DNA of 38,135 nt from an uncultured bacterium. GTDB lineage: Bacteria > Caldisericota > Caldisericia > B22-G15. A program made the position numbers and the translations under genes. Shown one piece after another: positions 7,507 through 28,214 of this stretch. Under the pieces are notes generated by a model. That model was given only the letters and a program-made list of their open reading frames with translations, ran no database searches and had not been told where the DNA came from. How positions within the stretch are numbered: the stretch's first letter is position 1; every line of letters starts with the position of its first letter. Location: positions 1-38,135 of the forward strand of contig CBFDTJ010000007.1 of assembly GCA_965612865.1 (NCBI GenBank). Direction: 5' to 3'.

Positions 7507-7542
7507 ATTGAAAAATATTGTAAAATAGAGGAGGAGGTGAGT

Positions 7543-7794
7543 ATGCTTGAGATAAAAATTAGCCTTACCGAAGAATTGGAAGAAAAATTTCGAGAGGTTG
7601 AGAAAAAAAGAAAAATGAGTAAGGAAGAGATTGTGAGGGAGGCACTTCAAATGTATCTACCAAGAATTCTTAAGGCTCCTCTCATGAATCCGGAGATACT
7701 TAAGGCTGTAGAAACTCAAGAGAAACTTGCATTGGAAGACTCTATAGTATGGGATAGCAGTGAGGTATTAAGAAGATGGAGGGAGACAAAATGA
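7543..7794 (+). CDS. CopG/RHH-type antitoxin (VapB-like)
   Basis: Small ORF with RHH pattern (IKISLTEELEEKF..MSKEEIVREAL); ATGA overlap with the PIN toxin; GGAGGTG RBS. Start is ATG 7543 or GTG 7537. Confidence 0.75.
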   Translation: MLEIKISLTEELEEKFREVEKKRKMSKEEIVREALQMYLPRILKAPLMNPEILKAVETQEKLALEDSIVWDSSEVLRRWRETK

Positions 7795-8231
7795 TTCCAG
7801 AAAGGATAGTAATTGACACTTCTGTTGTATTGAAGTGGTTTAGAAAGGAAAAGATGGAGAAGTATGTTAAGGAATCCAAGAAACTGAGAGATTATTACTT
7901 AAAGGGAATTGTTGAAATAATAATTCCGGACTTTATTTTTTATGAATTTACCAATGTATTAAGATACAAGGTAGACCTTACAGAGGACGAAATATACAAG
8001 GGAGTGAAAAGTTTGTTTAACATGGGTTTTGAAATTAAACATGCTGATCCAGAAACCATAAAAGAAAGTGTTTACATATCCTTTAAATATGCAATACCGA
8101 TAACAGAAGCATATTATATTGCCCTTGCTGATCAGGAAAAGGCATTCCTTGTAACTGCAGATGATCATCTCAAAGAGATTGTTAAAGACAAAAGAAACGT
8201 TCTTCATGTTAAAGAACTAAGTCTCATATGA
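7791..8231 (+). CDS. vapC: PIN-domain toxin (VapC family)
   Basis: VIDTSVVLKWF, YEFTNVL, AYYIALA, LVTAD; start 7791 overlaps the antitoxin stop. Confidence 0.85.
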   Translation: MIPERIVIDTSVVLKWFRKEKMEKYVKESKKLRDYYLKGIVEIIIPDFIFYEFTNVLRYKVDLTEDEIYKGVKSLFNMGFEIKHADPETIKESVYISFKYAIPITEAYYIALADQEKAFLVTADDHLKEIVKDKRNVLHVKELSLI

Positions 8232-9280: not shown

Positions 9281-10459
9281 ATGGGAAAACTTGACTTTTT
9301 AAAAGAGAAAATTGAGGAACTAAAAGAAAAGGGAATGTATACAAAGATAAGGGTACTTGAGAGTGAACAAGGGGCATGGGTGGTTATAAATGGAAAAAGA
9401 ATGCTAAATCTCTCCTCCAACAATTATCTTGGTCTCATAAGCAAAAAGGAGATTAAAGAAAAGGCAAAGGAAGCAATTGATAAATTTGGAGTTGGATCAG
9501 GAGCTGTTAGAACAATAGCGGGAACCAACTTACTTCACACAGAACTTGAAAAGAAACTTGCTGAATTCAAAGGAGCAGAAGCAGTAATATTGCTTCAATC
9601 TGGAATACTTGCAAATATGGCTACAATTCCACTCATTGTGGGAGAGGGAGATCTAATATTCAGTGATGAACTTAATCACGCTTCAATTATTGATGGATGC
9701 AGGTTAAGTAAGGCAAAGATAGTAAGGTATAAACACATAGATATGAATGATCTTAAGAACAAACTTGAAGAGTACAAAGATTACAGTGGGAGAAAATTAA
9801 TAGTCACAGACGGTGTATTTAGCATGGATGGGGATATTGCTCCACTGCCTGAAATAGTTGAACTTGCAGAAAAATACAATGCAATAACAATGGTTGACGA
9901 TGCACATGGAGAGGGCGTACTTGGAAAAGGAGGAAGAGGAATATTAAACCACTTTCATCTTGAAGGAAAGGTTGACATCGACGTTGGAACCCTATCCAAA
10001 GCTTTTGGCGTCATAGGTGGCTATGTAGCCGGTTCGAAAACTCTTATTGAGTACATGAAACAAAGGGCGAGACCTTTCCTTTTCAGTACATCCATTACTC
10101 CAGCAGACACAGCAGCATTAATTGAAGCGGTGGATATTCTTACAAAAAGTGATGAACTTGTAAATAGACTCTGGGAAAACTCAAAGTACATAAAGGAAAA
10201 ACTCAAAAATGCGGGTTTTGACATAGGACACAGTCAAACACCTATAACTCCTGTTATCATCGGAGATGAAAAGAAAACAAGCAAGATGGCTGATAGATTA
10301 AACGAAGAAGGAGTTTTCGTCCAGGGTATAACATATCCCACAGTTCCACTGGGCAAAGCAAGAATAAGGGTTATGGTCTCAGCAAGCCATTCAAAGGAAG
10401 ACCTTGATTTTGGAATAGAAAAATTTATAAAAATTGGTAAGGAGGTAGGTGTAATTTAG
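9281..10459 (+). CDS. kbl: Glycine C-acetyltransferase (2-amino-3-ketobutyrate CoA ligase)
   Basis: [38 protein letters not shown] (PLP lysine); follows tdh. Confidence 0.9.
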
Positions 10460-11493
10460 GGTTTCTTTCCTGTTCTCACTGCTCTAAATCCAAGCGAACC
10501 AAGTGCTTCGCTTTTGTCTCTTTTTATTACCATTCCTCTATAGGAAATGGAATAATATTCCCTTTCATCTGCCTCTGTGGATGACATATAGTATATTACA
10601 GGTTCATCAGGTGCCCATAAGGGGGTTTCCTTATCAGGCGGTTTTTTATAATTCTGTATTCCCTCCTTTCCATTCCATGGACAACCAACACACTCATTAT
10701 CCTTATACATACTCCTTGTTAACTCATCTATAGTAGGCAGTCTCCAGAAATCGTAAACTTTATCAGTAAGCTTTGTACCGTCATAATTTAAGTATCTAAA
10801 CATGTTGTATCTTTTGAAATCCTCATAAGATGCGTATGTTTCTCTTTTCCTTTCAAATCCTATAGGTTCTTTTCCATAAAGAGCAACTTCATTCCAGGAT
10901 AGGTTCCCCGTAGAACTTTTATGCCATCCAGGTCCCTCTCCTGCCCATATCAAAGTAATTTCATAACCTTCTACAATCCTTTCACCTCTATATCCATCAT
11001 CATATCTATTAAAATACCTGTAACCTGAAACAACTCCTACGGTTATCCCAATAACAAGAGGTATCAGGATAGCAATAATTACCTTAGAGTATCTTTTATA
11101 CCATCTAACTTCTCTCTCCAAAGGCTCTCTAATCCTGAACCCTTCTATAACAAAAAGAACACCAATTAATATAAAGAGCAGTGTAACAGGGATCCAGCTT
11201 AAAAAATCAGAGACAGTAGGAGTTCCTCTCTGGGTCATTCTTGAAAAAATAAAGACCGAGAAGATCATACCAGAAAGAACTATAAGGCTTCCTCCAATTT
11301 TCGGGAAGAGTAAAGAGACCACAGTAAGAGATACAGAAATTAAAGAGGGAATAAGAAAGAAAATCCACTCAAAGGGTCTGTACCAGCCTTCATGAAACAT
11401 TTCAGACACACCCCAGAATGTCCACAGGGATGAGATGAGGAGCATAAGAATAAAGGCTATATTTCCGGGAGTTCTACTTCTTATTCTCTTCAT
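10456..11493 (-). CDS. Membrane protein with several N-terminal TM helices and a C-terminal DUF1566/Lcl-like domain
   Basis: 4-5 hydrophobic segments, then [19 protein letters not shown] pattern. Confidence 0.6.
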
Positions 11494-12211
11494 GATACAC
11501 TCTCAAAAGAGTCTCAAGGGCAATTTTAATAGCAATGCTTTCGCCCTCCTTATACTTTTTCTCTGTGCCTTTTGGTTTAATCTTTCCCAAAGTCACATTT
11601 CCATCTATAGCAAAAATGGCACCGGATTTTACCTCCCTTCTTTGAGAAACAATAAAAACACATCCACTCTCCATTTCAACTGCTTGAACATTAGATTCAA
11701 CCAACATTTTTAAAGTTTTATCATCGTAAGGAATATAAAAAGCGTCACTGGAACCCACAACACCATAAAAAACTCTATTTGAAAATTCCTTTGAAACCTT
11801 AACCAGCTTTGATAAAACGCTAAAATCTGGAACTGCTGGGAAACCTAAAGGAAGATACTTTGGGGTAGTTCCATCGTCTCTTATGCTTCCTGTGGCTATA
11901 ACAACATCTCCAACATCAATTTCTGGATTTATTCCCCCTGCGCTACCCACTCTTATGAAGACTTTTCCACCAAGATGAATGAGCTCTTCAAGAACTATGG
12001 CAGTAGATGGAGCACCCATGCCCGTTGTTGAAACTGTAACTCTTAAATCCTTATAATATCCTGTGTAGGTGAGAAGTGATCTATAAGAATTTACTAGTTT
12101 CCCTTCCTTAAGAAAGTTTTCTGAAATTCTTGTAGCCCTATCGGGATTTCCAACAATAATAACATAGGGAGAGATGTCTTCTTTTTCACATCTTATGTGA
12201 AATTCACTCAT
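11474..12211 (-). CDS. Nucleoside phosphorylase (uridine phosphorylase / PNP-UDP family)
   Basis: GNPDRA, TGMGAPSTAIVLEEL, IRVGSAG, RDDGTT, AVEMESG. Confidence 0.9.
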   Translation of the reverse strand: MSEFHIRCEKEDISPYVIIVGNPDRATRISENFLKEGKLVNSYRSLLTYTGYYKDLRVTVSTTGMGAPSTAIVLEELIHLGGKVFIRVGSAGGINPEIDVGDVVIATGSIRDDGTTPKYLPLGFPAVPDFSVLSKLVKVSKEFSNRVFYGVVGSSDAFYIPYDDKTLKMLVESNVQAVEMESGCVFIVSQRREVKSGAIFAIDGNVTLGKIKPKGTEKKYKEGESIAIKIALETLLRVYHEENKK

Positions 12212-12214
12212 CTC

Positions 12215-13513
12215 TTACACTCCAAAAGTCTGCATTGGTTTCTCATCTTTTCTTATAACCATTTTATCTCTTATTTTGTTTGCTTCTCTCACCACTTCCT
12301 CAATATCAATGGTTAAAAGTTTACCATCCTTCACAACAATTCTTCCATCAACAATAACTGTGTCAATATCTCTATCTGAAAGGGAGTAAAGAATATTTGC
12401 AAATATGTTTGTATCTGGATTCATATTTGGAGAATTCTTTTTTATAAGTAATAAATCTGCAATAAACCCTTCCTTTACCTCACCAAGATCTTTTCGACCA
12501 ATGAACTCTCCTCCAGTGGAAAGAAGAGGTATCAACTCTTCCACTCTTCCAAGTTCGGGATTGGCTGTGGAAACTTTCGCAAGAAGTGCTGCATCTCTTG
12601 CCACCTCAAATATGTTCATGTTTGAGTTTGATGCTGGACCATCTGAAGCAAAGGAAACTGTTATTCCTCTCTCTATTGCTCTTGGAAGTAGATCCTTAAC
12701 AACTCCAAACCTCATGTATGTTTTTGGCGCATGGGAAACGTACGCTCCTGTGCTCTTTATAAGGTCAAGATCTGAATCTGTGGCAAAATAGGCATGGGCA
12801 AGTATTGTACCTTTCTTTAGTATTCCAATATCTTTTAGATACTCAATAGGTGTCCTCCCCTTCTCCTTCAAGCTTTTATCTATCTCCCACTGTTCCTCTG
12901 AGACATGGATATGGGATTTTAAACCGGTGTTTCCTGAAATCTCAGCGACTTTCTTTAAGAATTCCTCAGGACATATATATGGCGAATGGGGACCAAGACT
13001 TATGGTAAGCCTTTCGTCAGCACCACTGTATTTTTCAGTAAAATTCATCGCCTCCTTAAATTTCTCCTCCCATCCTTCCCCTGTTCCAAATACAGCCCAG
13101 GCAAGATCCGCTCTTATTCCAGATTCCTTATATGCCCTGTATGCTTTATCCATATAGAAATAATGATCACAGACAAGAGTAACTCCAGAAAGAAGCATCT
13201 CTGCAGCACCAAGAAGGGTTCCAATATAAACACCCTCTGGTGTAAGATTCTTCTCATAAATCCAGATGTGCTTATTGAACCAATCAAAGGTGGTTGTATC
13301 CTCAGCACTACCTCTTAAAAGTGTCATAGCTACATGAGCATGACAGTTGGTAACCCCTGGCGTTAGATAAAACTTACTTCCGTCTATAAGTTCTTTATCG
13401 CCATTGAGATTCTTCCCAATTTTTTTAATCCTGTTTCCCTCTATTAAAACATCTACATCTTCTTTTACACTTAAATCTTTAAAATTTAGAATCGTTGTGT
13501 TTTTTATAATCAT
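12215..13513 (-). CDS. Amidohydrolase, MtaD-like (5'-methylthioadenosine/SAH/nucleoside deaminase family)
   Basis: NCHAH metal motif, GPHSPY, HIHVSE, LAHA, ASDGPASN, VIVDGRIVV. Confidence 0.85.
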   Translation of the reverse strand: MIIKNTTILNFKDLSVKEDVDVLIEGNRIKKIGKNLNGDKELIDGSKFYLTPGVTNCHAHVAMTLLRGSAEDTTTFDWFNKHIWIYEKNLTPEGVYIGTLLGAAEMLLSGVTLVCDHYFYMDKAYRAYKESGIRADLAWAVFGTGEGWEEKFKEAMNFTEKYSGADERLTISLGPHSPYICPEEFLKKVAEISGNTGLKSHIHVSEEQWEIDKSLKEKGRTPIEYLKDIGILKKGTILAHAYFATDSDLDLIKSTGAYVSHAPKTYMRFGVVKDLLPRAIERGITVSFASDGPASNSNMNIFEVARDAALLAKVSTANPELGRVEELIPLLSTGGEFIGRKDLGEVKEGFIADLLLIKKNSPNMNPDTNIFANILYSLSDRDIDTVIVDGRIVVKDGKLLTIDIEEVVREANKIRDKMVIRKDEKPMQTFGV

Positions 13514-13884
13514 AGTCTCTCCTTTAAAAGTTCAAGTATTTTACTTCTATACTTATCCACCACATACTTCACCAATCCAATGTTCATGTCATCACCGAAA
13601 ATAGAGAGAATGTATCTGCCATTAAGAAAGGGTACAATGTATGTAGAACCTATCTCCTTTTCAACAATTATTCCCCTTATTTCCTCTTTATAAAAGAAAC
13701 TTTCCATTTTAAACATCTCTCTTATGCTTAAAGATATTGACATTGGGATTTCTTCATGGACCCGTCCATTCAATGATATACCCTCAACCATAAATCCATT
13801 TGGATCAGAAATATATATAGCAACAGACCCCTTTATTTTTTCCATGATAATTCTTAGAATTTCTCTCAATTTATTTTCTTCCAT
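13510..13884 (-). CDS. Roadblock/LC7 domain protein (divergent MglB-like)
   Basis: 124 aa; ISDPNGFMV and C-terminal NIGLVKY roadblock pattern; next to the small GTPase; ATGA overlap with the amidohydrolase. Confidence 0.7.
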   Translation of the reverse strand: MEENKLREILRIIMEKIKGSVAIYISDPNGFMVEGISLNGRVHEEIPMSISLSIREMFKMESFFYKEEIRGIIVEKEIGSTYIVPFLNGRYILSIFGDDMNIGLVKYVVDKYRSKILELLKERL

Positions 13885-13891
13885 TTTTGCC

Positions 13892-14386
13892 TCAAATTAG
13901 TTTTAAAAGTTCATTTAAAACATTCTTTTTGACTTCAGGATCTTTCGCAGAACCAAACACAAAGCGATAATTCATCGGGTCTAAAAGTGTAGAAAGTTCC
14001 TTTTCTGCATCCATTTCCTCTCCCGAGGAATTTTTAAGGTTTATAAAAAAGAACCCCTTTAGCTTTTTCTCTTTTAATAAAGATATAACCTCTGAATCGT
14101 ATCTGGAGATACCAATGAGAGGATCAAAGACATATATAAATAAATCTGCACCTTCAGAGATCACATCCCTTACAATTTCAAACCTTTTTTGACCAGGTGT
14201 TCCAAATATGTGAAACCTTACTCCATTTTTCTCTATCACACCAAAATCAAGAGCAATAGTTCTTCCTCTATACTCTATATTGATAGAATCTGGAATAAGA
14301 GTCTTTATGAGAGTGGACTTTCCAGCTTCAGCATTACCAAGCACTACAACCTTGACTCTTTTAATGACTTCTTTATCTCCTGTCAT
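13892..14386 (-). CDS. Small Ras-like GTPase (MglA/CvnD-like)
   Basis: G1 GNAEAGKST, G2 RTIALDFG, G3 GTPGQKRF, atypical G4 NLKN, G5 GSAK; flanked by two roadblock genes. Confidence 0.85.
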   Translation of the reverse strand: MTGDKEVIKRVKVVVLGNAEAGKSTLIKTLIPDSINIEYRGRTIALDFGVIEKNGVRFHIFGTPGQKRFEIVRDVISEGADLFIYVFDPLIGISRYDSEVISLLKEKKLKGFFFINLKNSSGEEMDAEKELSTLLDPMNYRFVFGSAKDPEVKKNVLNELLKLI

Positions 14387-14407
14387 CCTCTATACAGGAA
14401 TTAAAGC

Positions 14408-14764
14408 TTAGAAAGATTGAGTCATGGATTCTACTATCTTTGGTCCAGTTTTACTAACAAGGTATCTTGCCATTCCTATGTTCATTTTCTTATCTCCCAT
14501 TAGAAATAGAACCCAGTCATCACTTATTATCTGAACAAGAGCTATGCCGTCATCGTATTGAAGAATAATCTGGTCAAGTTTGCCAAGCTTGGCTTCTTCC
14601 CCGAGAACTTCAGTAGTGCCTAAAGTTGAGGATGCAAGTGCTCCTACAGTGTCTACATTGAGATCAACCATACCCACATAGGAAAGCACCAACCCATCTC
14701 TTCCAACGACCAAAGCACCTTTTGAGTGTTCTAACCTAAGCAGGTCTTTTAGAATTTCATCCAT
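14408..14764 (-). CDS. Roadblock/LC7 domain protein (MglB-like)
   Basis: GALVVGRDGLVL, VGALASS, LGKLDQIILQY, NIGMARY; GAGGAGG RBS. Confidence 0.88.
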   Translation of the reverse strand: MDEILKDLLRLEHSKGALVVGRDGLVLSYVGMVDLNVDTVGALASSTLGTTEVLGEEAKLGKLDQIILQYDDGIALVQIISDDWVLFLMGDKKMNIGMARYLVSKTGPKIVESMTQSF

Positions 14765-14787
14765 ACTTCCCTCCTCATATATTTAAA

Positions 14788-15735
14788 TCACTCATTTTTT
14801 AATTTTTCATCAAAGTATCTTATCATGTCAAAAATGAGCCCTTTAAATTTCTTGAGGTCAAGATCAAAGGCAACATCTGCATTGGGGTTCTTTCCTGTGA
14901 CTCTGTAAACATCAACTACAGTTTCTCCTCTTGTAAATTCTCCCCTTGTCTCAATATCTACACGAAGATACTTTGTTTCAAGTATTGATGGATCAATAAC
15001 ATATGAGACAGCAAGAGCATCATGGAGTGGCGCACCATTAATTCCAAAGACTTCTTTGTTTGTTGAAGCAAAGAATTTAAGAAGGGGAGAGATAATTCCT
15101 GAAACCATGCCGTTCATCTTCCCTATCTCCTCTATATCATCAAAGGATAGGAGTGCTTTGTTTGTAACATCAAGTCCTACCATGGTTATGTTAACACCTG
15201 ATTCAAACACAATCCTTGCTGCTTCTGGATCCACAAAAATGTTAAATTCAGATGCAGGAGTTATGTTAGAATCAAAAACTGCGCCACCCATAAGCACAAT
15301 TCTCTCTATCTTCTTCTTTATTTTAGGTTCCTTTAACAAAGCCACAGCAATATTTGTAAGGGGTCCTGTAGGAATAAGATAAACATCCTCCTTAGAGTTC
15401 ATCACAGTTTCAATAATGAAATCTACTGCATGTATATTTAATGGTTCAACCTCAGGCTCTGGAAGATCTGCTCCATCAAGTCCGGATACTCCATGTATCT
15501 CTGGAGCAACAACAAGTTCTCTAAATAACGGTTTGTCAAAACCTCTTGCAACCGGTACATTCTTTTCTCTTATGAGGGTAAGGGTTTTAAGTGCGTTTAA
15601 GAATGTCTTCTCTCCCACCTGATTTCCCGCAACAGTGGTTACACCAAGAACATCAAGTTCTTTTGAGAACACTGCAAGCATTATCGCCATCATATCATCA
15701 TGGCCTGGATCACAATCAAGTAGTACTTTCTTCAC
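14788..15735 (-). CDS. Nucleoside hydrolase (IU-NH/Rih family)
   Basis: DCDPGHDD Ca-binding motif, GPLTNIA, SEFNIFVDPEAA, LHDAL. Confidence 0.93.
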   Translation of the reverse strand: MKKVLLDCDPGHDDMMAIMLAVFSKELDVLGVTTVAGNQVGEKTFLNALKTLTLIREKNVPVARGFDKPLFRELVVAPEIHGVSGLDGADLPEPEVEPLNIHAVDFIIETVMNSKEDVYLIPTGPLTNIAVALLKEPKIKKKIERIVLMGGAVFDSNITPASEFNIFVDPEAARIVFESGVNITMVGLDVTNKALLSFDDIEEIGKMNGMVSGIISPLLKFFASTNKEVFGINGAPLHDALAVSYVIDPSILETKYLRVDIETRGEFTRGETVVDVYRVTGKNPNADVAFDLDLKKFKGLIFDMIRYFDEKLKNE

Positions 15736-16660
15736 TTATCTTTTTCCTCCTTTTTGCCTTAGCCATTGCTTGTATTGAGTAAATTGTTAGTGCGATAATG
15801 GTAGTTATGTATGGAATCATCTGAATAAACTCCGATGGAATTTCAAGGGATGCAAGGTATATTGCAAGTGCATTAACTATTCCAAAAAGCAGCGAACCAA
15901 GAAAAGTACCAAGGGGTAAATTTCCACCAAGAGCAGACGCAGCAATTGCAATAAATCCTCTACCTGCCGTCATGTCCCTTGAAAACCATGATACATAACC
16001 CATGGAAAGATAAAGTCCACCAAGAGCACCGAAAACTCCCGATAAAAGCAGAGAATACATTTTTATCTTATTCACGTCCACACCTACAGACTCTGCAGCA
16101 TCAGGATTTTGACCAACTGCTCTAATCCTTAGTCCAAGAGGTGTTTTATATATGATATAGTAGAAGATTATAACAGATACCAATGCAAAATATGTGAGAA
16201 TATTATGTCCACTTATAATCCTTCCTAAAATTGGAATATCCTTTATCACTGGAATCTGATAGGATGGAAAAACAAGACTTTTTAAGGAACTCGATGTTCC
16301 CTTATCGTGAGCAAATATGTAAAGGAGAAATATTGTCATACCGGATGCAAACATGTTTAAAGCTATAGCTGCAAGTATTATATTTGCTCTTAGTTTAAGA
16401 TGGAAGTATCCAAGAAGAGCAGAAAGTCCAACTCCTGCAAGTATCCCCATAATAAGAGCAAGGAATAGATTTCCAGTGAAAGCACTAACCATAACACCGG
16501 TAAAAGCAGAAACAAGCATTATACCTTCAAGAGCAATGTTAATGGAACCAGCAAGGGCAGAAATTGCAACTCCAATTGCAGGATAAAGTATGGGGGTCAT
16601 AACTCTTAAAATTGCAAAGCCAAAATCGGGAGAGATTATACTTTTAAGAAGCGGGTTCAT
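15716..16660 (-). CDS. Nucleoside ABC transporter permease (NupC-like)
   Basis: NIALEGIML, TPLGLRIRAVGQNPDAAESVG, GRGFIAIAA, MIPYITT. Confidence 0.9.
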   Translation of the reverse strand: MNPLLKSIISPDFGFAILRVMTPILYPAIGVAISALAGSINIALEGIMLVSAFTGVMVSAFTGNLFLALIMGILAGVGLSALLGYFHLKLRANIILAAIALNMFASGMTIFLLYIFAHDKGTSSSLKSLVFPSYQIPVIKDIPILGRIISGHNILTYFALVSVIIFYYIIYKTPLGLRIRAVGQNPDAAESVGVDVNKIKMYSLLLSGVFGALGGLYLSMGYVSWFSRDMTAGRGFIAIAASALGGNLPLGTFLGSLLFGIVNALAIYLASLEIPSEFIQMIPYITTIIALTIYSIQAMAKAKRRKKISEESTT

Positions 16661-17720
16661 GTTCTACCTCCTTTCTCTCTGCCTCCTTAATAGTTATTCT
16701 GTATCTCCATTGCTCTAAGAACGCCTCTGCTGTAATCAAAAGTATTATAATTGCCTCGATCACTGTAACCATTTCTGATGGTATATCCGACAGAAGGTTA
16801 AGAACCTGACCTCCAACCCTTAGATATGCAAGAAATAGTGAAGCAAATATAATAGATATTGGATGATTTCTTCCTATTATGGCAACCACAACTCCATCCC
16901 ATCCATATCCAGGACTCATCTGCCAGTTAAACCTCCTGTGTATCCCCATAACCTCCGTCATCCCTGCAATACCTGCTATAAACCCACCAATAACCTGAGA
17001 AATTATTATTACCTTAAACACATTGATACCACCATACCTTGAGAAATGAATATTAAAACCTGTCATTCTGATTTCATACCCAAGAGTTGTATGATAAAGG
17101 AAAAAGTAAACAAGTATTGCAAAAATAAAAGCAATAACAATTCCCCAATGTATTCTTGTACCAGGCACAAACTGTGAAAGCCAGGCAGTTTTTGGTAATT
17201 GATAGGATACAAGATAACCAGCTGCCTTATCTCTAAAGTGGTAGTTTATTATGTACAAACCAAGAAAATAGGCTACATAGTTCAGCATAAGGGAAGCAAC
17301 AAGTTCACTGGCATTCCACTTTGCCTTGAGTATTCCAGGAATAAATCCCCAGAATGCACCAACAAGACCTGCCACAAGCAATACCAGTGGAATATGAATA
17401 ATCATGGGCATGTTAGTTGACACAGCGAAAGCCGTTCCTATGGCTGCTCCTATAAACAACGCTCCTTCTGCTCCAATGTTAAACTGCTCTGCCTGGAAAG
17501 GAATAGATATGGCAAGTCCACAAAAGATTATTGGAGATGCGGTTTCTATCAAATTTCCAAATCTGCTTTTGGATAAAAAAGGTCCCAGAAGGAATGATTT
17601 GAGAGAAAAACCAGGATTTTTACTTATCACATATATAACAAAAATGCTTATTATTATTCCTATGGCTATAGCAATTATCGTTCTAATAAGGTTAAAATAC
17701 TTTAAAACAAATTTCTCCAT
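16644..17720 (-). CDS. Nucleoside ABC transporter permease (NupB-like)
   Basis: FNIGAEG, SLMLNY, TTLGYEIR, GYGWDGVVVA. Confidence 0.9.
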   Translation of the reverse strand: MEKFVLKYFNLIRTIIAIAIGIIISIFVIYVISKNPGFSLKSFLLGPFLSKSRFGNLIETASPIIFCGLAISIPFQAEQFNIGAEGALFIGAAIGTAFAVSTNMPMIIHIPLVLLVAGLVGAFWGFIPGILKAKWNASELVASLMLNYVAYFLGLYIINYHFRDKAAGYLVSYQLPKTAWLSQFVPGTRIHWGIVIAFIFAILVYFFLYHTTLGYEIRMTGFNIHFSRYGGINVFKVIIISQVIGGFIAGIAGMTEVMGIHRRFNWQMSPGYGWDGVVVAIIGRNHPISIIFASLFLAYLRVGGQVLNLLSDIPSEMVTVIEAIIILLITAEAFLEQWRYRITIKEAERKEVEHEPAS

Positions 17721-17721
17721 T

Positions 17722-19245
17722 CTACTCCTCCCTCTTTATACCCAGCATGTATGGACCAAGATCCTTACCTGTAAGACCATCCACTTCATTGAACCTGGCA
17801 ACTATTTCTCCATTATAGATTACCACTATCCTTGTGGAGAGTTTAAGAACCTCATCAAGATCCGCTGAAACAAGAAAAACTGCGCTTCCTTCGTCTCTTG
17901 CCTTCATGAGAAGATTGTGAACAAGTTCCTCAGAACCAACATCTATTCCTCTTGTTGGCTGATCAGCAATTAAAACCATGGGATTAGAAGATAATTCTCT
18001 TGCCACCACAACTTTTTGAATGTTTCCACCTGAAAGAGAGGAAACTGTTGCTTTGGGGGAACTGGCAAGAACATTGAAATCCTTTATAAGTTTATTACTG
18101 TAATCCTGTATATACTTCCAATCCAGTTTTGCTCCTTTTGAAAAAGGACTCTTATAGTATCTATCAACTATGAAATTTTCTTCAAGAGTTGCCTTATCTG
18201 CAACTCCATTCTTCATTCTATCCTCTGGAATGTGTGAAACCTTCTTTTCTCTTATTTTTCTTGGAGAAAGACCTAAAATATTTTCTCCTTTAATTAAAAC
18301 TTCGCCGGTGGTTGCTTCTCTAAGACCTGTGAGTATCTCAACAAGCTCTGTCTGACCATTTCCTTCAACTCCAGCAATTCCAAGTATCTCACCAGCTCTA
18401 ACTTCAAAGGAGATGTTTTTTAAGACCTCCACACTTTCTTCATTTACATAGGAAAGATTCCTCACAGTAAGGAGTGGCTCTCCAATCCTTTTGGGTGGAG
18501 GAATTCTTTCAAAACTTATCTCTCTACCCACCATCAGGTATGCTATGTCATGTTCAGTTAAGTCCTTGGCGTCTTTCGTAGCAACAACCTTTCCATCTCT
18601 CATAACAGTTACCTTATCAGCAATCTCTTTTACCTCTTTTAGTTTGTGGGATATAAAGATTATCGTCTTACCGTGTTTTTTAAGTTCTTTCAAGGTTTTA
18701 AAGAGAACCTCTGTCTCCTGAGGTGTAAGCACTGATGTAGGTTCATCAAGAATCAATAATTCTGCATTCCTGAAAAGAGCCTTGAGTATCTCCACCCTCT
18801 GTTTTATACCTATAGGAAGATCCTTTATCTTTTTCTCTGCAGGAACATCAAGTCCATAGTTTTTAGAAACCTCCTTTGTTATCTCAATGGCTTTCTGGGT
18901 ATCAAGAAAGAATTTCCCTTTGAGAGGTTCTGAGCCAAGAACAAGATTTTCACTTACAGTTAAGTCGGGTGCAAGCATCAAATGCTGATGAACCATACCA
19001 ATTCCAATTTTTATTGCATCAAGAGGATTTCTTATGTGGATCTCTTTTCCTTTGTAATATATTTTCCCCTCCTGAGGTTTCTCTATGCCAAATATCACCT
19101 TCATTAAAGTTGTCTTCCCTGCTCCATTCTCCCCCACTATGGCATGGATGGTATTTTCTTCTACTTCTACACTAACCCCTCTATTTGCAATAACACCATT
19201 GGGATAAATTTTTACTATATTCTCTACAGAAAGTATGACTCCCAT
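17722..19245 (-). CDS. Nucleoside ABC transporter ATP-binding protein (NupA-like, duplicated NBD)
   Basis: GENGAGKTT, ILDEPT, AGVEGNGQTEL, LSGGNIQK, QPTRGIDVG. Confidence 0.93.
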   Translation of the reverse strand: MGVILSVENIVKIYPNGVIANRGVSVEVEENTIHAIVGENGAGKTTLMKVIFGIEKPQEGKIYYKGKEIHIRNPLDAIKIGIGMVHQHLMLAPDLTVSENLVLGSEPLKGKFFLDTQKAIEITKEVSKNYGLDVPAEKKIKDLPIGIKQRVEILKALFRNAELLILDEPTSVLTPQETEVLFKTLKELKKHGKTIIFISHKLKEVKEIADKVTVMRDGKVVATKDAKDLTEHDIAYLMVGREISFERIPPPKRIGEPLLTVRNLSYVNEESVEVLKNISFEVRAGEILGIAGVEGNGQTELVEILTGLREATTGEVLIKGENILGLSPRKIREKKVSHIPEDRMKNGVADKATLEENFIVDRYYKSPFSKGAKLDWKYIQDYSNKLIKDFNVLASSPKATVSSLSGGNIQKVVVARELSSNPMVLIADQPTRGIDVGSEELVHNLLMKARDEGSAVFLVSADLDEVLKLSTRIVVIYNGEIVARFNEVDGLTGKDLGPYMLGIKREE

Positions 19246-19260
19246 CCTTCCTCCATTTAG

Positions 19261-19289
19261 AAAAAAGCCGGGAGACTCCTCTCCCGGCT
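19261..19289 (-). terminator. Intra-operon terminator / stabilising hairpin after the substrate-binding protein gene
   Basis: 10-bp stem (plus-strand arms AGCCGGGAGA/TCTCCCGGCT) with a 4-nt loop, followed by T6 on the minus strand. Confidence 0.75.
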
Positions 19290-19299
19290 AATAAATCTC

Positions 19300-20367
19300 T
19301 TACTGACCGAAGACTGTATCTACTACTATTTCTCCATTAACAATCTTTTCCTCAAGCTCCTTTATTTTCTTTCTGAACTCTTCTGGAACAAGTTTCTTAT
19401 AGTTCTCATTATCAGCAACACCTACACCGCCTTCTTTAATTCCAAGTGCCTCTGCCTTTCCATACTCAAGCTTTCCTTCCATATGAAGCTTTATTCCTCT
19501 GAAGAGTGAGTTATCTACATTCTTCATCATGGATGTTACAATGTGTGCTGCCTTCTCTGGATCGCTATCTTTAAACATAATATACTGATCCGAATCGACA
19601 CCTATTGCATATTTATTTCTCTCTTTCGCAGCATCAAGGAGTCCAAGTCCAGTTTCTCCTGCTACGTTGAAAGAAATATCTGCTCCCTGATCATACTGGG
19701 CAAGAACAAGCTCTTTACCCTTTGCAGGGTCACTGAAGGATCCTGCATAGGATACAAGGACCTTTATATCAGGATCAATGTAGTGTGCACCCTGAATATA
19801 ACCAACCTTAAAATCGTTAATAACAGGGATATCCATTCCACCAAGGAATCCAATAATCTTTTCAGGGTTTGCAAGAGGCATATCTGAAGTTGTTATCATT
19901 GCAGCAAGAGCACCTACGAGGAATGAACCCTCGTTCTGCTTGTAGAGAATTGAATATACATTGTCAAGATTTCCCTTTGAATAATCTACAGTTGTGTCAA
20001 ATATGAAGTACTTTTTGTCTGGATGCTTTGGAGCAATTTTTTCAAGATTCTCTGTCATCTGCCAGGTTCCTACAATTATAATATCCCAATCACCTTCAGA
20101 GAGTTGTTCAAGATCTGGTTCCCATCTTGCAGGGTCATATCCACCCTCAATAACCTTTCCTTCAATTCCCAATTCCTTTATTGCCCTCTCTACACCTCTG
20201 CTGGCAGAATCAAAGAATGACTTGTCTCCAAGAGTTCCATTAATGTAAAGGACCACTTTGAGTTTCTCTTCAGGTGGTTGCTCCTCTTCTTTCTTTCCAC
20301 AGGCAGTTAAAGAAACTAAACCTACTACCAACGCTAAAACAATCAAAAGTGATAAAATTTTTTTCAT
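19300..20367 (-). CDS. BMP family (PnrA/TmpC-like) nucleoside-binding lipoprotein
   Basis: Lipobox SLTAC; LGDKSFFDSA, EGSFLVGALAA, IGFLGG, AIGVDSDQ, TSMMKNVD. Confidence 0.92.
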   Translation of the reverse strand: MKKILSLLIVLALVVGLVSLTACGKKEEEQPPEEKLKVVLYINGTLGDKSFFDSASRGVERAIKELGIEGKVIEGGYDPARWEPDLEQLSEGDWDIIIVGTWQMTENLEKIAPKHPDKKYFIFDTTVDYSKGNLDNVYSILYKQNEGSFLVGALAAMITTSDMPLANPEKIIGFLGGMDIPVINDFKVGYIQGAHYIDPDIKVLVSYAGSFSDPAKGKELVLAQYDQGADISFNVAGETGLGLLDAAKERNKYAIGVDSDQYIMFKDSDPEKAAHIVTSMMKNVDNSLFRGIKLHMEGKLEYGKAEALGIKEGGVGVADNENYKKLVPEEFRKKIKELEEKIVNGEIVVDTVFGQ

Positions 20368-20406: not shown

Positions 20407-21333
20407 CTATCCTCTCTCACCTCCTTTCAAATTAAGGAGAGCTTTCTCTAACAATTCTCTAAAAACGGATTTTTCAATCTCTGTAACTATTTTCATTCTT
20501 TCTCCTTCTACAAGAATACTTGCACCTCTCAAAGTAGTGTAGTTCAATTCCATGCGAAGATCACCAAGAATCACGTTTTTACCAACCTTTTCATCCAGAA
20601 CATAAGCGACAGTCATTGGATCAGGGAAAACCACGCCTCTCACTCCATAAAACTTTTCGATAAAATTCATAGGTGTTTGAACTAAATCTAAAAGTAACTT
20701 CCCAGCACTTGAGCTTTCATCTACAAACTCCTTAAGTTCATTCTCCAGAAACATACTATTTGCAATAGGATCCCAGGGAACAACTGTCATTGGAATACCA
20801 GAGTTTATAACAAACTGAACAGCTTCAGGATCCTGATAAAAATTGAATTCTGCAAATCTTGTTACATTACCTCTTTCAAGAGCTCCGCCCATGGAAACTA
20901 CCTCTTTGATAAGATTCTTAAGTTCAGGATATAAATTGATAGCCATGGCAACGTTTGTAAGAGGACCAAGTGTAATAACGATCAGACCTTCATTTTCCTT
21001 GGCAAGTTTAAAAATTGCATCTGGTGCCTTTATGGTTTCCTCTTTTTTGTCTGTCTCTGGAAGCAGAACTCCCCCAAGACCATTTTCACCATGAATTTTT
21101 TCTCCCCGGGAAAGTTCCTGAATTAGAGGAACTGTAGCGCCTTTAAAAACCGGTATATCCTTTCTTCCAAAATATGAAAGTAATCTTAAAACATTGTCTG
21201 TAACCTGATCTACATAGGTATTACCGGAGACAGTGGTAATCCCCACCACATCCACATCCTCTCTTGAAATAGCCATCATAATAGCAATTGCATCGTCAAT
21301 ACCGCAATCCGTATCAATAATTAACTTTTTCAC
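20407..21333 (-). CDS. Second nucleoside hydrolase
   Basis: DTDCGIDD, GPLTNVA, AEFNFYQDPEA; FPDP in place of the HD motif. Confidence 0.9.
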   Translation of the reverse strand: MKKLIIDTDCGIDDAIAIMMAISREDVDVVGITTVSGNTYVDQVTDNVLRLLSYFGRKDIPVFKGATVPLIQELSRGEKIHGENGLGGVLLPETDKKEETIKAPDAIFKLAKENEGLIVITLGPLTNVAMAINLYPELKNLIKEVVSMGGALERGNVTRFAEFNFYQDPEAVQFVINSGIPMTVVPWDPIANSMFLENELKEFVDESSSAGKLLLDLVQTPMNFIEKFYGVRGVVFPDPMTVAYVLDEKVGKNVILGDLRMELNYTTLRGASILVEGERMKIVTEIEKSVFRELLEKALLNLKGGERG

Positions 21334-22225
21334 CCTTCTCCTCCAGAAAATTAATTATTTCTTCCTTTAGTGGAGATGATGTAGCTGCACCCTTTCTTGT
21401 AACAGAAATAGCAGAAGCAGCGGATGCATATTTTATAGCGTCTCTTATATTCATTCCCAGAAACAGAGCAGATGCTAGTGATCCGTTGAATGTATCACCT
21501 GCTCCTGTGGTATCAACTGGATTAACATTAAAGGAAGGGAAGAAAAACCTCTCCTCTCTATTTATATAGAATCCCCCTCTCTCACCCATCTTTACAATTA
21601 CACTCTCTGCACCATAATCTAAAAGTCTCTTCGCACCATCCACAACTTCATTGTTTCCTGTAAGTCTCCTAACCTCCACCTCATTGGGTGTAACTATTGT
21701 ACAGTAAGGAATTACCCTTAACAAACTTTCATCAACAGGAGTAGGATCGAATATAACAACTCCCCCTTTTTCATGTGCTATCTGTGATAACTTAACATTT
21801 GCTTCAATAGGTATCTCTCCCTGTAAAAGAAGAAAATCACCTTTTTTAAACTCTCTCTTTAAAATCTCTACCTCTCTATCTCCCACCAGTGCATTTGCGC
21901 CGGGTATTATAACAATCTTATTTTTTCCCTCCCTATCCACATTTATAAGAGCAATACCTGTGGAAACATCTTTCACCTTCTTAAGGTTAGATTCCACAGA
22001 AAACTTCTTAATCTCTCCTTCAACAAATTCACCAAAGTAATCATCTCCTACTTTTCCTAAAAATAGAACATCACCACCTGCTTTTTTAGAGGAAACTGCC
22101 TGATTGGCTCCCTTGCCTCCCTGATTCATAAAGAAGTTTTTTCCCACAAGGGTTTCTCCCTCCTCCGGGAATCTCTCAGAGTATACAACTAAATCTACAT
22201 TGATGCTTCCCACAACAAAAATCAT
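21314..22225 (-). CDS. rbsK: Ribokinase
   Basis: GSINVD, GGKGANQA, TPNEVE, VDTTGAGDTF. Confidence 0.9.
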   Translation of the reverse strand: MIFVVGSINVDLVVYSERFPEEGETLVGKNFFMNQGGKGANQAVSSKKAGGDVLFLGKVGDDYFGEFVEGEIKKFSVESNLKKVKDVSTGIALINVDREGKNKIVIIPGANALVGDREVEILKREFKKGDFLLLQGEIPIEANVKLSQIAHEKGGVVIFDPTPVDESLLRVIPYCTIVTPNEVEVRRLTGNNEVVDGAKRLLDYGAESVIVKMGERGGFYINREERFFFPSFNVNPVDTTGAGDTFNGSLASALFLGMNIRDAIKYASAASAISVTRKGAATSSPLKEEIINFLEEKGEKVNY

Positions 22226-23592
22226 AAATCTGCCCCTTTCCTGACCATATTGACTATCTCTCCTATTTTAAACTGACTTCTTCCTCTCATATATGTATTT
22301 ATAACATCTTTTAACGCTTCTTTCCACTTCAAAGGGATAGATTCAGGGTCTAAAACACCAAGAATTCCTAATGCTTCACCGAGATTACAATCAACATCAA
22401 AACCACTCCTTGAAATTATCTCCACTGTATTTAAAAAATCACCTTTCCCAAACATAAGTCCCATGAGTACAATGGCAATGTTAGGATAGAGATGGACCCA
22501 ATTATATCTTTCAAACCTTTTATATATCCACTCCCTTACCTCCTTCCAGTCGTCTTTTTCCTTACAGGTCTCATATGTAGTTTCAAGAACATTCCTTAAT
22601 TCACTTCTTTCTGGTATAAATTCAATAGAATTTTCTATTAATTTTTCTATATTATCATTAGCAAAGGCAAGAGATGTGAGAATGGCTACAAACATCTCTC
22701 CATAAACTCCATTTTTATCATGGGAAACTACACCGTCCATATACGAAAGCCAGGAAGCCTTGTAAGGGTTTCCTGGAGATAAAAGTCCAGGCATATTTCC
22801 CCTCATTGCTCCACCTATCCACTCATTGTAGGGATTACTAAATTGACCCGAAAGGGGAGGCATTATGCCTCTTTTTATATTCATAAGGGCAATAAGTTCT
22901 GCACTCCAGCCAAAAGGTATTCTTTTCACCCAGCCCAACGCTATGTCTTCACTTGTAATCTTTCTTCCTTTTTCTAAAAATTCAATGAGTAAATTTAACT
23001 CATAGGTAATATCATCGTTGGTTGTATCTACCTCATTATCAAGATAAAAGGAGAAATCTTTGTATGTACTCTCTATCTCCCAATAAGGATATCCCTCAAT
23101 CTTTGTTCCGAAACTTCCACCAGAGATCAATCCATAGATTCCGCCTTCTATCTTCTCTTTTAAAGAGAGGGGAGATTTTACATTAATCTTTGGAAAAGAC
23201 TCCTCAATTTCCCTCCAGTTCATCGGGTGAATAAAACTATTGTAGGGATGATCCTTATTCTTTTTTAAATTGGGGATTAAGCTGAATATTTTTGATGTAA
23301 CAGAGATCAATTCACCTATGTCATTCTCTTCAAGAAACTTCAATCCATCTGGAAGGAGTTCCTCTATTTCTGAAACATCAAACCCTCTATTTTCTAAAGC
23401 CTGGGCACCGGCAATTATGAGAGATTCTCTTGCGTTTGATCCTGGAACATAACTTTCCCACAGAAGTTTTGTAAGGAGTTCTTCACCTTCAATAAGCGGT
23501 CCTATCTCTCCCCAGTGAGATGGTTTCTTAACAAGCCTATCATTGTAGAATAGATTTTTAATATAGACCCACGCTTTAAATTTCGAACTCAT
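22222..23592 (-). CDS. ADP-ribosylglycohydrolase family protein with N-terminal extension
   Basis: [34 protein letters not shown] metal-binding motifs; 4-nt overlap with the toxin stop. Confidence 0.82.
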
Positions 23593-23953
23593 ATCTTAAT
23601 AAGCCCCAGGGAGAATTTAAGAGCTATGTCTACCTTCACCATGGTTGATTTCTTGAGTTTTCCTATTTTCTTTAAGAGCCTCTTCTTATCAATGGTTCTA
23701 ATCTGATTGAGAAGTATGAAACTATCTTTATCCAATCCTCCCTCGTTTTTTTCTACCTTTATAACAATGGGGTACAGCTCTTTGACTTCCTTTGATGTTA
23801 TGGCTGCAACTATCACTGTTGGTGAATATTTATTTCCTATATCATTCTGTATTACAAGAACAGGTCTTATACCACTCTGCTCAGAACCTTTTGAAGGAGA
23901 AAGATCCACTAAATAAACGTCCCCTCTCTTGATTTGACTTTTTTTTTACTCAT
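23589..23953 (-). CDS. mazF: MazF/PemK (NdoA-like) endoribonuclease toxin; N-terminus interrupted by a frameshift in an A9 run
   Basis: [57 protein letters not shown]. The coupled ATG at 23953 lies 44 nt upstream of the in-frame GTG 23909, so it is out of frame by 1 nt. Confidence 0.85.
23939..23947 (-). repeat. A9 homopolymer at codons 3-5 of mazF
   Basis: Nine consecutive T on the plus strand at 23939-23947. Confidence 0.9.
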
Positions 23954-24216
23954 TTGAGATACTTGAATATGTCCTTAAAGATTTCCTGTTCAATTTCAAA
24001 AAATTCTCTGGATAAGAGCATACTGGCCTCTGATGATTCCTTATATCCCTTTATGAGTTCTTTTTTGATGCGTGTCTTCCTGTCCTCCAGGGCAATATAG
24101 AAGGCAATGACTTCTTTTAGAAACTCATCTCTTTTCTTTCTCTTTCTCTTTGCTTTTTTTTCTACTGCCTCAAGGAGTTCACTGGGCAGTGTAAGAGTAA
24201 TCTTTTCTTCTCTCAT
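23950..24216 (-). CDS. RHH antitoxin (NdoAI/MazE-like)
   Basis: ITLTLPSELL..RDEFLKEVIAFYI..ELIKGYKE pattern; directly upstream of mazF with an ATGA overlap. Confidence 0.8.
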   Translation of the reverse strand: MREEKITLTLPSELLEAVEKKAKRKRKKRDEFLKEVIAFYIALEDRKTRIKKELIKGYKESSEASMLLSREFFEIEQEIFKDIFKYLK

Positions 24217-27317: not shown

Positions 27318-28214
27318 ATGAAGAGGGTGGTAAGCATAAGTCTTGGTTCTTCAAAAAGAGATAAAAAGGTTGAGGTTGAAATACTTGGTGAAAAATTTAG
27401 CATTGAGAGAATTGGAACTGACGGAGATATTGAAAAATTTGTAAGTCTTTTTAAAGAGCTTGACGGAAAGGTGGATGCCCTTGGGCTTGGTGGGGCAGAT
27501 TTATACATAAGTGTGGGCAAAAAAAGGACAACCCTTAAAAGTGTTGAGAATATGATAAAAGATGTTAAAAAAACTCCTATATGTGATGGACAATGGCTTA
27601 AGGATACATTAGAAAAAAAGGCAGTTTTTTACATAAAAGAGAAGGGACTTATTAAAGAGGGAACAAAAGTGCTGGTTGCTTCAGGAGTAAGTAGATATGG
27701 AATGGCTGAGGGTTTTTTAGAGGCAGGGTGTAAAGTTTTATTTGGTGACCTGATGTTTTCCTTAGGAATTCCTGTTCCAATTTACACACACTCCTCCTTT
27801 CTCCTTCTTGCATCTATAATAGTGCCCATAGCAAGAAGGCTCCCTTACAAATGGCTTTATCCAACAGGAGAATCTCAGGAAAAGGTAGAACCAAAATATG
27901 AAAAATACTACAAATGGGCAGATGTAATTGCAGGGGATTTCTTGTACATAAAGAAGCATATGCCTGAAGATCTAACAGGGAAAATTGTGTTTACAAATAC
28001 TACTACCCTTGAGGATAGAGAGTTTCTTAGAAAGAGGGGAGTAAAACTTCTTGTAACCACTACACCTGAGTTTGACGGAAGAACCTTTGGCACCAATGTT
28101 ATGGAAGCAGTTATATGCGCATATACAGGTAAGAAACCTGAAGAGTTGACTGAGAAGGATTACTATGATTTAATAGATAAACTGAACATAAAACCCAATA
28201 TAATAGAACTTTAA
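27318..28214 (+). CDS. Conserved protein of unknown function (family often auto-annotated 'quinate 5-dehydrogenase')
   Basis: 298-aa ORF with RBS; I recall the family pattern VVSISLGSSKRD..ERIGTDGD..DGKVDALGLGG..GRTFGTNVMEA. Confidence 0.65.
   Translation: MKRVVSISLGSSKRDKKVEVEILGEKFSIERIGTDGDIEKFVSLFKELDGKVDALGLGGADLYISVGKKRTTLKSVENMIKDVKKTPICDGQWLKDTLEKKAVFYIKEKGLIKEGTKVLVASGVSRYGMAEGFLEAGCKVLFGDLMFSLGIPVPIYTHSSFLLLASIIVPIARRLPYKWLYPTGESQEKVEPKYEKYYKWADVIAGDFLYIKKHMPEDLTGKIVFTNTTTLEDREFLRKRGVKLLVTTTPEFDGRTFGTNVMEAVICAYTGKKPEELTEKDYYDLIDKLNIKPNIIEL

Follow-up and report, generated by a model that had tools for sequence, protein, structure and literature searches.

The DNA analyzed here, referred to as the window, is a 38,135-nucleotide (nt) stretch of contig CBFDTJ010000007.1 (assembly GCA_965612865.1) from an uncultured bacterium of the class Caldisericia. 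On its minus strand, a gene for a small GTPase of the MglA family lies between genes for two roadblock proteins, here named RB1 and RB2, and this trio sits inside a nucleoside-salvage operon. As an initial annotation of the window had described, the trio is placed between genes for a nucleoside hydrolase (IU nucleoside hydrolase) and an MtaD-like deaminase, with gaps of 23, 21, and 7 nt from the hydrolase gene onward and a 4-nt ATGA overlap between RB2 and the deaminase gene. The features of this segment are as follows.

14788..15735, minus strand: nucleoside hydrolase (RihA-like), upstream flank of the slot
14408..14764, minus strand: RB1, 118 amino acids (aa), MglB-like, predicted partner of the GTPase-activating protein (GAP) type (Pfam Robl_LC7, alignment)
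14387..14407, minus strand: 21-nt gap between RB1 and the GTPase gene; a protoglobin gene lies at this place in a congener (G001) and in contigs L067 and L068
13892..14386, minus strand: small MglA-family GTPase, 164 aa
13510..13884, minus strand: RB2, 124 aa, divergent (fold model and profile comparison)
12215..13513, minus strand: TRZ/ATZ/MtaD-like amidohydrolase (the deaminase), downstream flank

The reading of these genes as a real and intact module, comprising an MglB-like gene, an MglA-like gene, and a second, divergent roadblock gene, was borne out by profile matches and by a fold model of RB2. RB1 exceeds the Pfam Robl_LC7 cut-off (35 bits versus 23), and in alignment it keeps the Asp-Gly pair (D23-G24) found in MglB proteins coupled to Group 2 to 5 MglA; RB2 has Asn-Gly at this place. 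The GTPase matches TIGR00231 small_GTP (49.3 bits; cut-off, 42.5) and also Ras, Roc, and Arf, and a search of solved structures with its sequence returned generic GTPases only. Its predicted fold is a G domain alone over all 164 residues (model confidence [pLDDT], 85). An analogy with Rag GTPases, in which a C-terminal roadblock domain is fused to the GTPase, had been drawn earlier and does not hold, as no roadblock domain is fused to the window GTPase. RB2 lies under every Pfam cut-off, that of Robl_LC7 included, with MAPKK1_Int reaching 16.7 bits against 25. It is nevertheless predicted to have a roadblock fold like that of MglB and MglC: an AlphaFold model (pLDDT, 78.7), built on a 9-row alignment that included RB1 sequences, gave Myxococcus MglC and MglB as its top Foldseek matches (E, 1e-7; template-modeling score, 0.66 to 0.74), comparison of profiles with hhalign tied RB2 to roadblocks (probability, 90.5), and the RB2 profile also finds RB1, weakly.

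The trio is probably cotranscribed with the salvage genes. In agreement with the initial annotation, no terminator-like site was found on the minus strand between 16016 and 13243, and a scan of 37 window proteins (one without a Pfam hit) revealed neither kinase nor motility genes. A strong ribosome-binding site precedes RB1, the Shine-Dalgarno-like AGAGG of the GTPase gene touches its ATG, and the ribosome-binding site of the deaminase gene sits within the last codons of RB2. This last site resembles the intergenic site of G006, a sister-genus genome without the trio, so the ATGA overlap may, tentatively, be a by-product of insertion. One candidate promoter was noted:

14802..14831, minus strand: promoter-like site TTGACA-18-AAAAAT, inside the 3' end of the hydrolase gene, 38 nt before RB1

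Promoter-like sites occur at chance level (47 found versus 45.3 expected), and G001 has a similar site, but within coding sequence. A 19-nt inverted repeat at 14781-14848 (84% complementary, 30-nt spacer) encloses the promoter-like site; it is AT rich and may be due to chance. The ends of the cassette show no notable repeats and no target-site duplication. Metagenome contig L066 repeats the whole arrangement with 99.7 to 100% protein identity and may come from the same population.

The trio has a narrow distribution. When 93 phylum genomes were scanned with a profile built on the GTPase clade, near-full matches (E <= 2e-60; next best, 9e-26) came from three genomes of one genus, namely, the window's own genome (G000; 1.4 Mb, 88% complete) and the congeners G001 and G002 (the latter 91% complete), and the RB2 profile matches the same three. 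The next matches to the GTPase profile are either DUF4388-linked GTPases, which belong to another clade, or long GTPases of the translation type. Protein searches returned only four to five close clusters per trio gene, the close homologues carry Caldisericia source labels, and the proteins P0004, P0054, and P0058, whose longest contigs are of equal length, suggest one more species with the trio. No relative of the trio was found in viral contigs, where 0 of 95 pattern matches were confirmed, and a plasmid search gave nine distant Thermus/Deinococcus matches, none of the window's GTPase clade.

All trios with readable DNA, in the three genomes and in four of four metagenome contigs, sit between the hydrolase and deaminase genes. 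The sister genus shows the empty site: in four of its six genomes (G003 to G006) the hydrolase gene abuts the deaminase gene with gaps of 15, 21, 17, and 15 nt; of the other two, G008 lacks the hydrolase gene and has the deaminase gene directly after the permease gene, whereas in the other the contig stops too early. The order of the genes for the Bmp-type binding protein, the ATP-binding cassette (ABC) ATPase, and the permeases is kept in the sister-genus genomes without the trio. G010, from another family, has the same operon with an unrelated gene (ADP-ribosylglycohydrolase) in the slot, and in G026 the deaminase gene is located elsewhere. The operon is thus older and more widely distributed than the trio, and what occupies the slot varies; insertion of the trio in the ancestor of the genus would be the simplest reading. 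The GC content of the cassette (0.32 to 0.40) is not distinct from that of its flanks (0.37 to 0.39); therefore, composition gives no sign of recent transfer.

A further gene belongs to the cassette in close relatives. In G001, a 175-aa protoglobin gene lies between RB1 and the GTPase gene and overlaps the start of the latter; its product reaches 36.5 bits against Pfam Protoglobin (cut-off, 25) and keeps a His aligned with the conserved His of other globins. The globin is whole in contig L067 and has a 29-aa in-frame deletion in L068 (146 aa). The deletion allele also occurs within the species of G001. The cluster of the G001 globin has 23 members, and among the 15 listed, 8 are full length and 7 carry the 29-aa deletion, which is therefore unlikely to be the error of one assembly. 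No protoglobin was found in G000 or G002, genomes that are 88% and 91% complete. Pfam Protoglobin is present in 10 of the 93 phylum genomes, where the other globins mostly stand alone; one, in L157, follows a different MglA-type gene. At that locus (L157:43-2192, genome G043) a DUF4388-GTPase pair is followed by a 400-nt gap with short repeats and then by a protoglobin gene without the conserved His, and the congener G044 has a roadblock gene where L157 has the protoglobin (L159).

Globins are also placed beside MglA-type genes outside the phylum. In the family of G093 (Thermus relatives), protoglobin matches were found in 21 of 23 genomes; of the 32 loci examined from 50 matches, 11 (in 10 genomes) have GTPase, roadblock, and globin genes in a row, and 5 more have roadblock and globin. 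Two Thermus plasmid records, among three plasmid regions opened, have DUF4388-GTPase-(...)-roadblock-protoglobin annotated beside transposases, and a Deinococcus plasmid record has GTPase and roadblock without globin ahead of catabolic genes. In archaeal relatives (38 genomes, with 14 loci each spanning about 3 kb), neither a globin hit nor a salvage gene was found; FtsZ, KaiC-like fusions, and roadblocks were recognized there by reading translations.

The GTPase has several features of the MglA family: a single G domain within 150 to 240 aa, a roadblock gene within four genes (here adjacent on both sides), a P-loop of the form GxxxxGK[ST], a G2 Thr, and a G3 motif with Gln. Its motifs are GNAEAGKS (G1), a short switch I followed by G-R42-T43, GTPGQ (G3; Q66), N-L-K-N in place of NKxD (G4), and SAK (G5). 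An Arg directly precedes the G2 Thr in 15 of 15 rows of its clade and in 28 of 31 rows of a wider alignment, switch I is 7 to 18 residues shorter than in Group 1-, 2-, 3-, and 5-type rows and similar to that of archaeal rows, and G4 reads N-x-[KR]-x throughout the clade. This degenerate G4 is common to the genus and to WOR-3 proteins, and the Asn of the window motif is variable in relatives (Asp, Glu, or Pro).

As set out in the consulted parts of the classification by Wuichet and Sogaard-Andersen (PMC4316618), an Arg ahead of the G2 Thr goes with TVPGQ in Group 1, a Thr at that place goes with GTPGQ in Groups 2 to 5, and systems with one MglA and two MglB are given for Groups 1 and 3; these parts and three of the four supplement files show no globin neighbor. 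With a Group 1-type Arg, GTPGQ, and no NKxD, the window GTPase fits none of the five published groups, which were assigned to rows here by taxon and motif and not by the reference set of PMC4316618. It shares the Arg with Group 1 and differs in G3 (TVPGQ) and in the consensus G4 ([NT]KxD). Conservons (PMC13343842, as far as available) resemble the trio in having a roadblock and a GTPGQ GTPase in an operon with a degenerate G4, yet these Group 2 systems are actinobacterial four-gene operons with the CvnA kinase and CvnC, both absent from the trio, which lies in another phylum and on a separate branch. Group 3, from beta- and gammaproteobacteria, has a receiver-like/winged-helix partner, whereas no such gene lies beside the trio and the proteobacterial rows fall on another branch. 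Groups 4 and 5 are like the trio in GTPGQ, in the Asp-Gly of the coupled roadblock, and in their variable neighborhoods, and unlike it in carrying Thr, not Arg, ahead of the G2 Thr, along with a consensus G4.

In a tree of 79 rows, thinned by hand from 154 candidate domains and lacking the intended rows L184 and L191, which were not recovered, five GTPases of the genus group with WOR-3/TA06-labeled and unnamed proteins (support, 100/99). The MglA-like GTPases of their class, like those of actinobacteria, proteobacteria, and Chloroflexota, fall elsewhere. The clade is joined to archaeal rows with weak support (85/66), a long branch leads to the canonical MglA row, and the tree is unrooted and does not show a donor. 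An approximately unbiased test on a 41-row quick tree rejected (p = 0.00014) the union of these proteins in one clade with nine further MglA-like GTPases from the class, a group that was named after the first tree had been seen. In Atlas searches, the nearest clusters of the GTPase were archaeal GTPases of about 160 aa, and the nearest cluster of RB2 was a roadblock cluster in which WOR-3 is commonest.

The codon sequences indicate that the trio is maintained under purifying selection. No stop or frameshift was seen in any copy read, the RB2 gene of G002 being cut by an assembly gap. In three genome pairs, the ratio of nonsynonymous to synonymous divergence (dN/dS) was 0.03 to 0.07 for RB1, with dS near saturation, 0.14 to 0.17 for the GTPase, and 0.11 to 0.20 for RB2, compared with 0.02 to 0.14 for ten flanking genes; in pairs with G002, the L069 allele (close, not identical) stood in for RB1 and RB2. 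The dN of the GTPase was the highest of the 13 genes (0.12 to 0.20). Between G000 and G002, synonymous divergence was 0.38 in the cassette versus 0.18 in the ten flanking genes (Fisher p, 3e-11, with codons that are not independent and with L069 in place of RB2). The G000 GTPase is 80% identical to that of G001 and 67% to that of G002, and most flanking genes show the reverse. P0100, on a short contig, looks mosaic, with a window-type start and a G001-type G4 region. From the divergence contrast and this mosaic, the cassette appears to have been exchanged separately from its flanks and swapped between lineages.

We lean toward the view that the trio is an MglA/roadblock switch that was acquired horizontally, was probably gas sensing and globin gated, and now rides without its sensor in an older salvage operon. 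Since sister genomes have the gene cluster without the trio and a close relative keeps the globin, an inserted cassette with a lost sensor is likely, rather than a salvage regulator. Several observations weigh against this view. The trio is intact, with low dN/dS, in two species without globin, which a pure passenger lacking any input explains poorly. The globin may have been gained in the G001 lineage instead of lost elsewhere, and the globin operons of the Thermus type, which include DUF4388 and a GTPase of another clade, are analogues and not orthologues. Every readable orthologous trio occupies this one slot, and none points to another home for the cassette; the other two genome pairs show the divergence contrast only weakly (p about 0.015 each); and an unrelated MglA-type gene beside a nucleoside-type importer, described below, fits less easily.

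If the cassette works as the Thermus and Myxococcus MglA-MglB systems do, the GTPase would supply both catalytic residues, Arg42 and Gln66 being equivalent to MglA Arg53 and Gln82, whose role is described in the available part of PMC6785124. A roadblock dimer (RB1-RB1 or RB1-RB2) bound to the GTP form would position these two residues and so act as an off switch. RB2 may pair with RB1 in a heterodimer or be a modulator of the MglC kind; the available part of PMC4719450 describes MglC as showing no GAP activity. Where the globin is present, a heme ligand (O2, NO, or CO) might gate the roadblock activity. In the window's own genome, the switch would run without a sensor of its own, expressed by read-through from the salvage operon. 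The output, the weakest step of this scheme, would be relayed to partners from other loci, the most plausible being the resident network of DUF4388/PATAN and roadblock proteins.

That genome has a canonical MglA-MglB-DUF4388 locus, four more roadblock genes, four DUF4388 genes, and type IV pilus genes (recognized from sequence); the DUF4388 set and most roadblocks are also present in relatives that lack the trio. Neither V4R nor flagellin was found in this 88% complete genome. The canonical locus (G000:C1:17700-19374, in the order DUF4388-MglB-MglA) is of Group 1 (ERT and TVPGQ). Three orphan roadblock genes lie at G000:C37:2642-3049, C48:4007-4348, and C31:11933-12280, the last following a gene of the tetratricopeptide repeat type. 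Robl_LC7 matches number five in each of three g1 genomes and three in each g2 genome tested. A DUF4388 protein had been named in the initial annotation as a possible partner of the GTPase; it lies 17 kb away, and as four DUF4388 matches occur in each of five relatives (5/5) regardless of the trio, a dedicated DUF4388 partner was rejected.

Among known systems, the closest in parts are MglA, MglB, and MglC of Myxococcus xanthus and Thermus thermophilus, which likewise combine a single small G domain with roadblock genes, an Arg before the switch I Thr, and a catalytic Gln; MglC, as described in the available part of PMC4719450, is a divergent second roadblock, as is RB2. The window GTPase differs from these MglA proteins in having GTPGQ rather than TVPGQ, 17 rather than 26 residues from the P-loop to the G2 Thr, no NKxD, and a length of 164 aa, and the canonical Group 1 pair of its own genome is separate from the trio. 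The Thermus-type operons (such as NZ_AP025604.1 and NZ_CP016313.1) place a stand-alone protoglobin directly after the roadblock in an MglA-type operon, on a plasmid beside transposases. They are unlike the cassette in GTPase clade, gene order, the presence of DUF4388, and the single roadblock, and a function in gating is likewise putative for them. HGbRL of Methylacidiphilum infernorum (PMC4476040, available in part) links a globin to a Roadblock/LC7 domain, and its authors propose ligand-driven signaling; it is a fusion protein with another globin type, and the available part of that paper reports no GTPase in the operon. As a protoglobin-coupled cassette, the locus has the protoglobin in the operon in G001, L067, and L068 and lacks it in G000.

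The initial annotation had proposed an undescribed G-protein switch tied to nucleosides. No description of the trio was found in the literature searched, which leaves out most subscription journals; the tie to nucleosides is left without support by the sister-genus operon that lacks the trio, by the unrelated gene in the slot of G010, and by the neighborhoods of distant homologues. The comparison of neighborhoods cuts both ways, as the constant slot of the orthologous trios speaks for such a tie, whereas among 94 loci of distant GTPase homologues (2 to 12 kb) none has a hydrolase, deaminase, or phosphorylase gene at a tblastn E of <=1e-5. One of the 94 has Bmp and permeases (the f3 case), one has a PfkB gene, and L107 gave one weak deaminase-family phmmer match.

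In f3, another family of the class (L043:6783-9198, L044, L045, L046, L052, L153, L156, and L158), a pair of DUF4388 and MglA-type genes without a roadblock is followed, after 55 to 123 nt, by a Bmp-ABC-permease cluster and preceded by what we take, from their sequences, to be TldD/PmbA-like and PfkA-like genes. In f4, the same pair lies beside MutS2-like genes, with no Bmp.

The alternative that survives best, which we consider unlikely, is that the switch was recruited after insertion to nucleoside uptake or salvage, sensing purine-nucleotide pools or binding the deaminase or the ABC ATPase, with the globin dispensable. The purifying selection on the trio, seen also in species without the globin, keeps this explanation alive, and the same slot in three of three genomes of the genus and the tight spacing with no terminator-like site are in line with it. 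The N-L-K-N of the window recalls xanthine-specific Ras mutants, in which, according to the available part of PMC7952092, Asp-to-Asn at the NKxD site turns Ras to xanthine nucleotides, but this Asn is not conserved. The f3 family, with an unrelated MglA-type gene just upstream of the Bmp-ABC cluster in five of six loci, also fits recruitment; however, the adjacency amounts to one event among kin, it recurs in 0 of 12 f4 loci, and a promoter-like site lies in the gap of the one locus scanned. With five Bmp genes in a 1.4-Mb genome, adjacency to Bmp by chance is plausible. The complete operon without the trio in the sister genus, and the lack of hydrolase, deaminase, and phosphorylase matches at the above tblastn threshold in the 94 distant loci, also argue against recruitment.

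Somewhat more doubtful is a relic in slow decay that has no present function, having lost the globin first with the rest to follow. Full, partly deleted, and absent globins coexist in the genus, the GTPase has the highest dN, its AGAGG touches the ATG in the window, and its G4 is degenerate. Against decay stand the lack of stops and frameshifts in the copies read, dN/dS values of 0.03 to 0.20, conserved G1, G2, G3, and G5 motifs, and the occurrence of the degenerate G4 in WOR-3 proteins as well.

We give still less credence to a more specific proposal, in which the genus and WOR-3/TA06 would form a sixth MglA type, with an intrinsic arginine finger, GTPGQ, a very short switch I, and no NKxD, that here would have shed its globin and been rewired to purine-nucleotide status, possibly through a nucleotide other than guanine, so as to control nucleoside import or deamination. 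Least probable of all is a separate transcription unit with a promoter in the end of the hydrolase gene, acting next to the canonical MglA/MglB as another polarity switch of type IV pili, for although TTGACA-18-AAAAAT and a strong ribosome-binding site precede RB1 and the genome has pilus assembly genes, four pilin-like open reading frames, the canonical MglA-MglB-DUF4388 locus, and further roadblocks, promoter-like sites are at chance frequency, the canonical-type roadblock and DUF4388 set is also found in sister-genus genomes without the trio, and the GTPase lacks the TVPGQ of Group 1.

To our knowledge, neither input nor output is known for most prokaryotic MglA/roadblock modules. As the genus offers a natural series of full, partly deleted, and absent globins around one conserved trio, four small soluble proteins would suffice for a test of globin gating. 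The GTPase joins motifs of separate published catalytic types and thereby allows an intrinsic arginine finger to be tested together with GTPGQ. For the reading of genomes, tight spacing and an ATGA overlap were no sign here of common ancestry with the surrounding metabolic operon. Nucleoside control, if true, would be an undescribed nutrient-linked role for an MglA-type switch within the literature searched, and a rewired sixth type would show a nutrient-sensing small GTPase of bacteria in the midst of a change of input.

The rest of the salvage operon comprises the following.

11474..12211, minus strand: uridine/purine nucleoside phosphorylase-family gene
15716..20367, minus strand: Bmp/PnrA-type binding protein, ABC ATPase, and two permeases (nucleoside-type ABC importer)
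20407..22225, minus strand: ribokinase and second nucleoside hydrolase

The amidohydrolase downstream of the trio (TRZ/ATZ/MtaD group) reaches no NCBIfam cut-off. A strong GC-rich terminator-like hairpin with a T tail lies directly after the Bmp gene (19266-19289) and may reduce read-through into the ABC genes and the trio. An ADP-ribosylglycohydrolase-family gene (22222-23592) precedes the ribokinase gene in the window's genus; it is not at that place in the sister genus, and in G010 it has moved into the slot between hydrolase and deaminase. Two toxin-antitoxin pairs are embedded in housekeeping runs, a ribbon-helix-helix (RHH) gene with MazF/PemK at 23589-24216 and RHH with PIN at 7537-8231, and the sister genus keeps the MazEF pair at the start of its salvage operon. 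An Rfam scan of the window gave two tRNAs only. A 298-aa open reading frame between dusB and greA (27318-28214) has no Pfam or NCBIfam match. The last gene of the minus-strand run (10456-11493) encodes a membrane protein with a weak DUF7670 match and a soluble C-terminal part; in sister-genus genomes, it is present, fragmentary, or absent.

Two further arrangements were seen in archaea. At L185-L190, L193, L194, L076, L079, L082, L083, L088-L090, and L096, KaiC-like ATPase-GTPase fusions were recognized from Atlas rows and translations; they often have a stand-alone KaiC-like gene before them and a roadblock gene after them. In three archaeal genomes (L181, L182 [L070], and L191), a roadblock-less GTPGQ GTPase of 146 to 149 aa lies directly downstream of an FtsZ-like gene.

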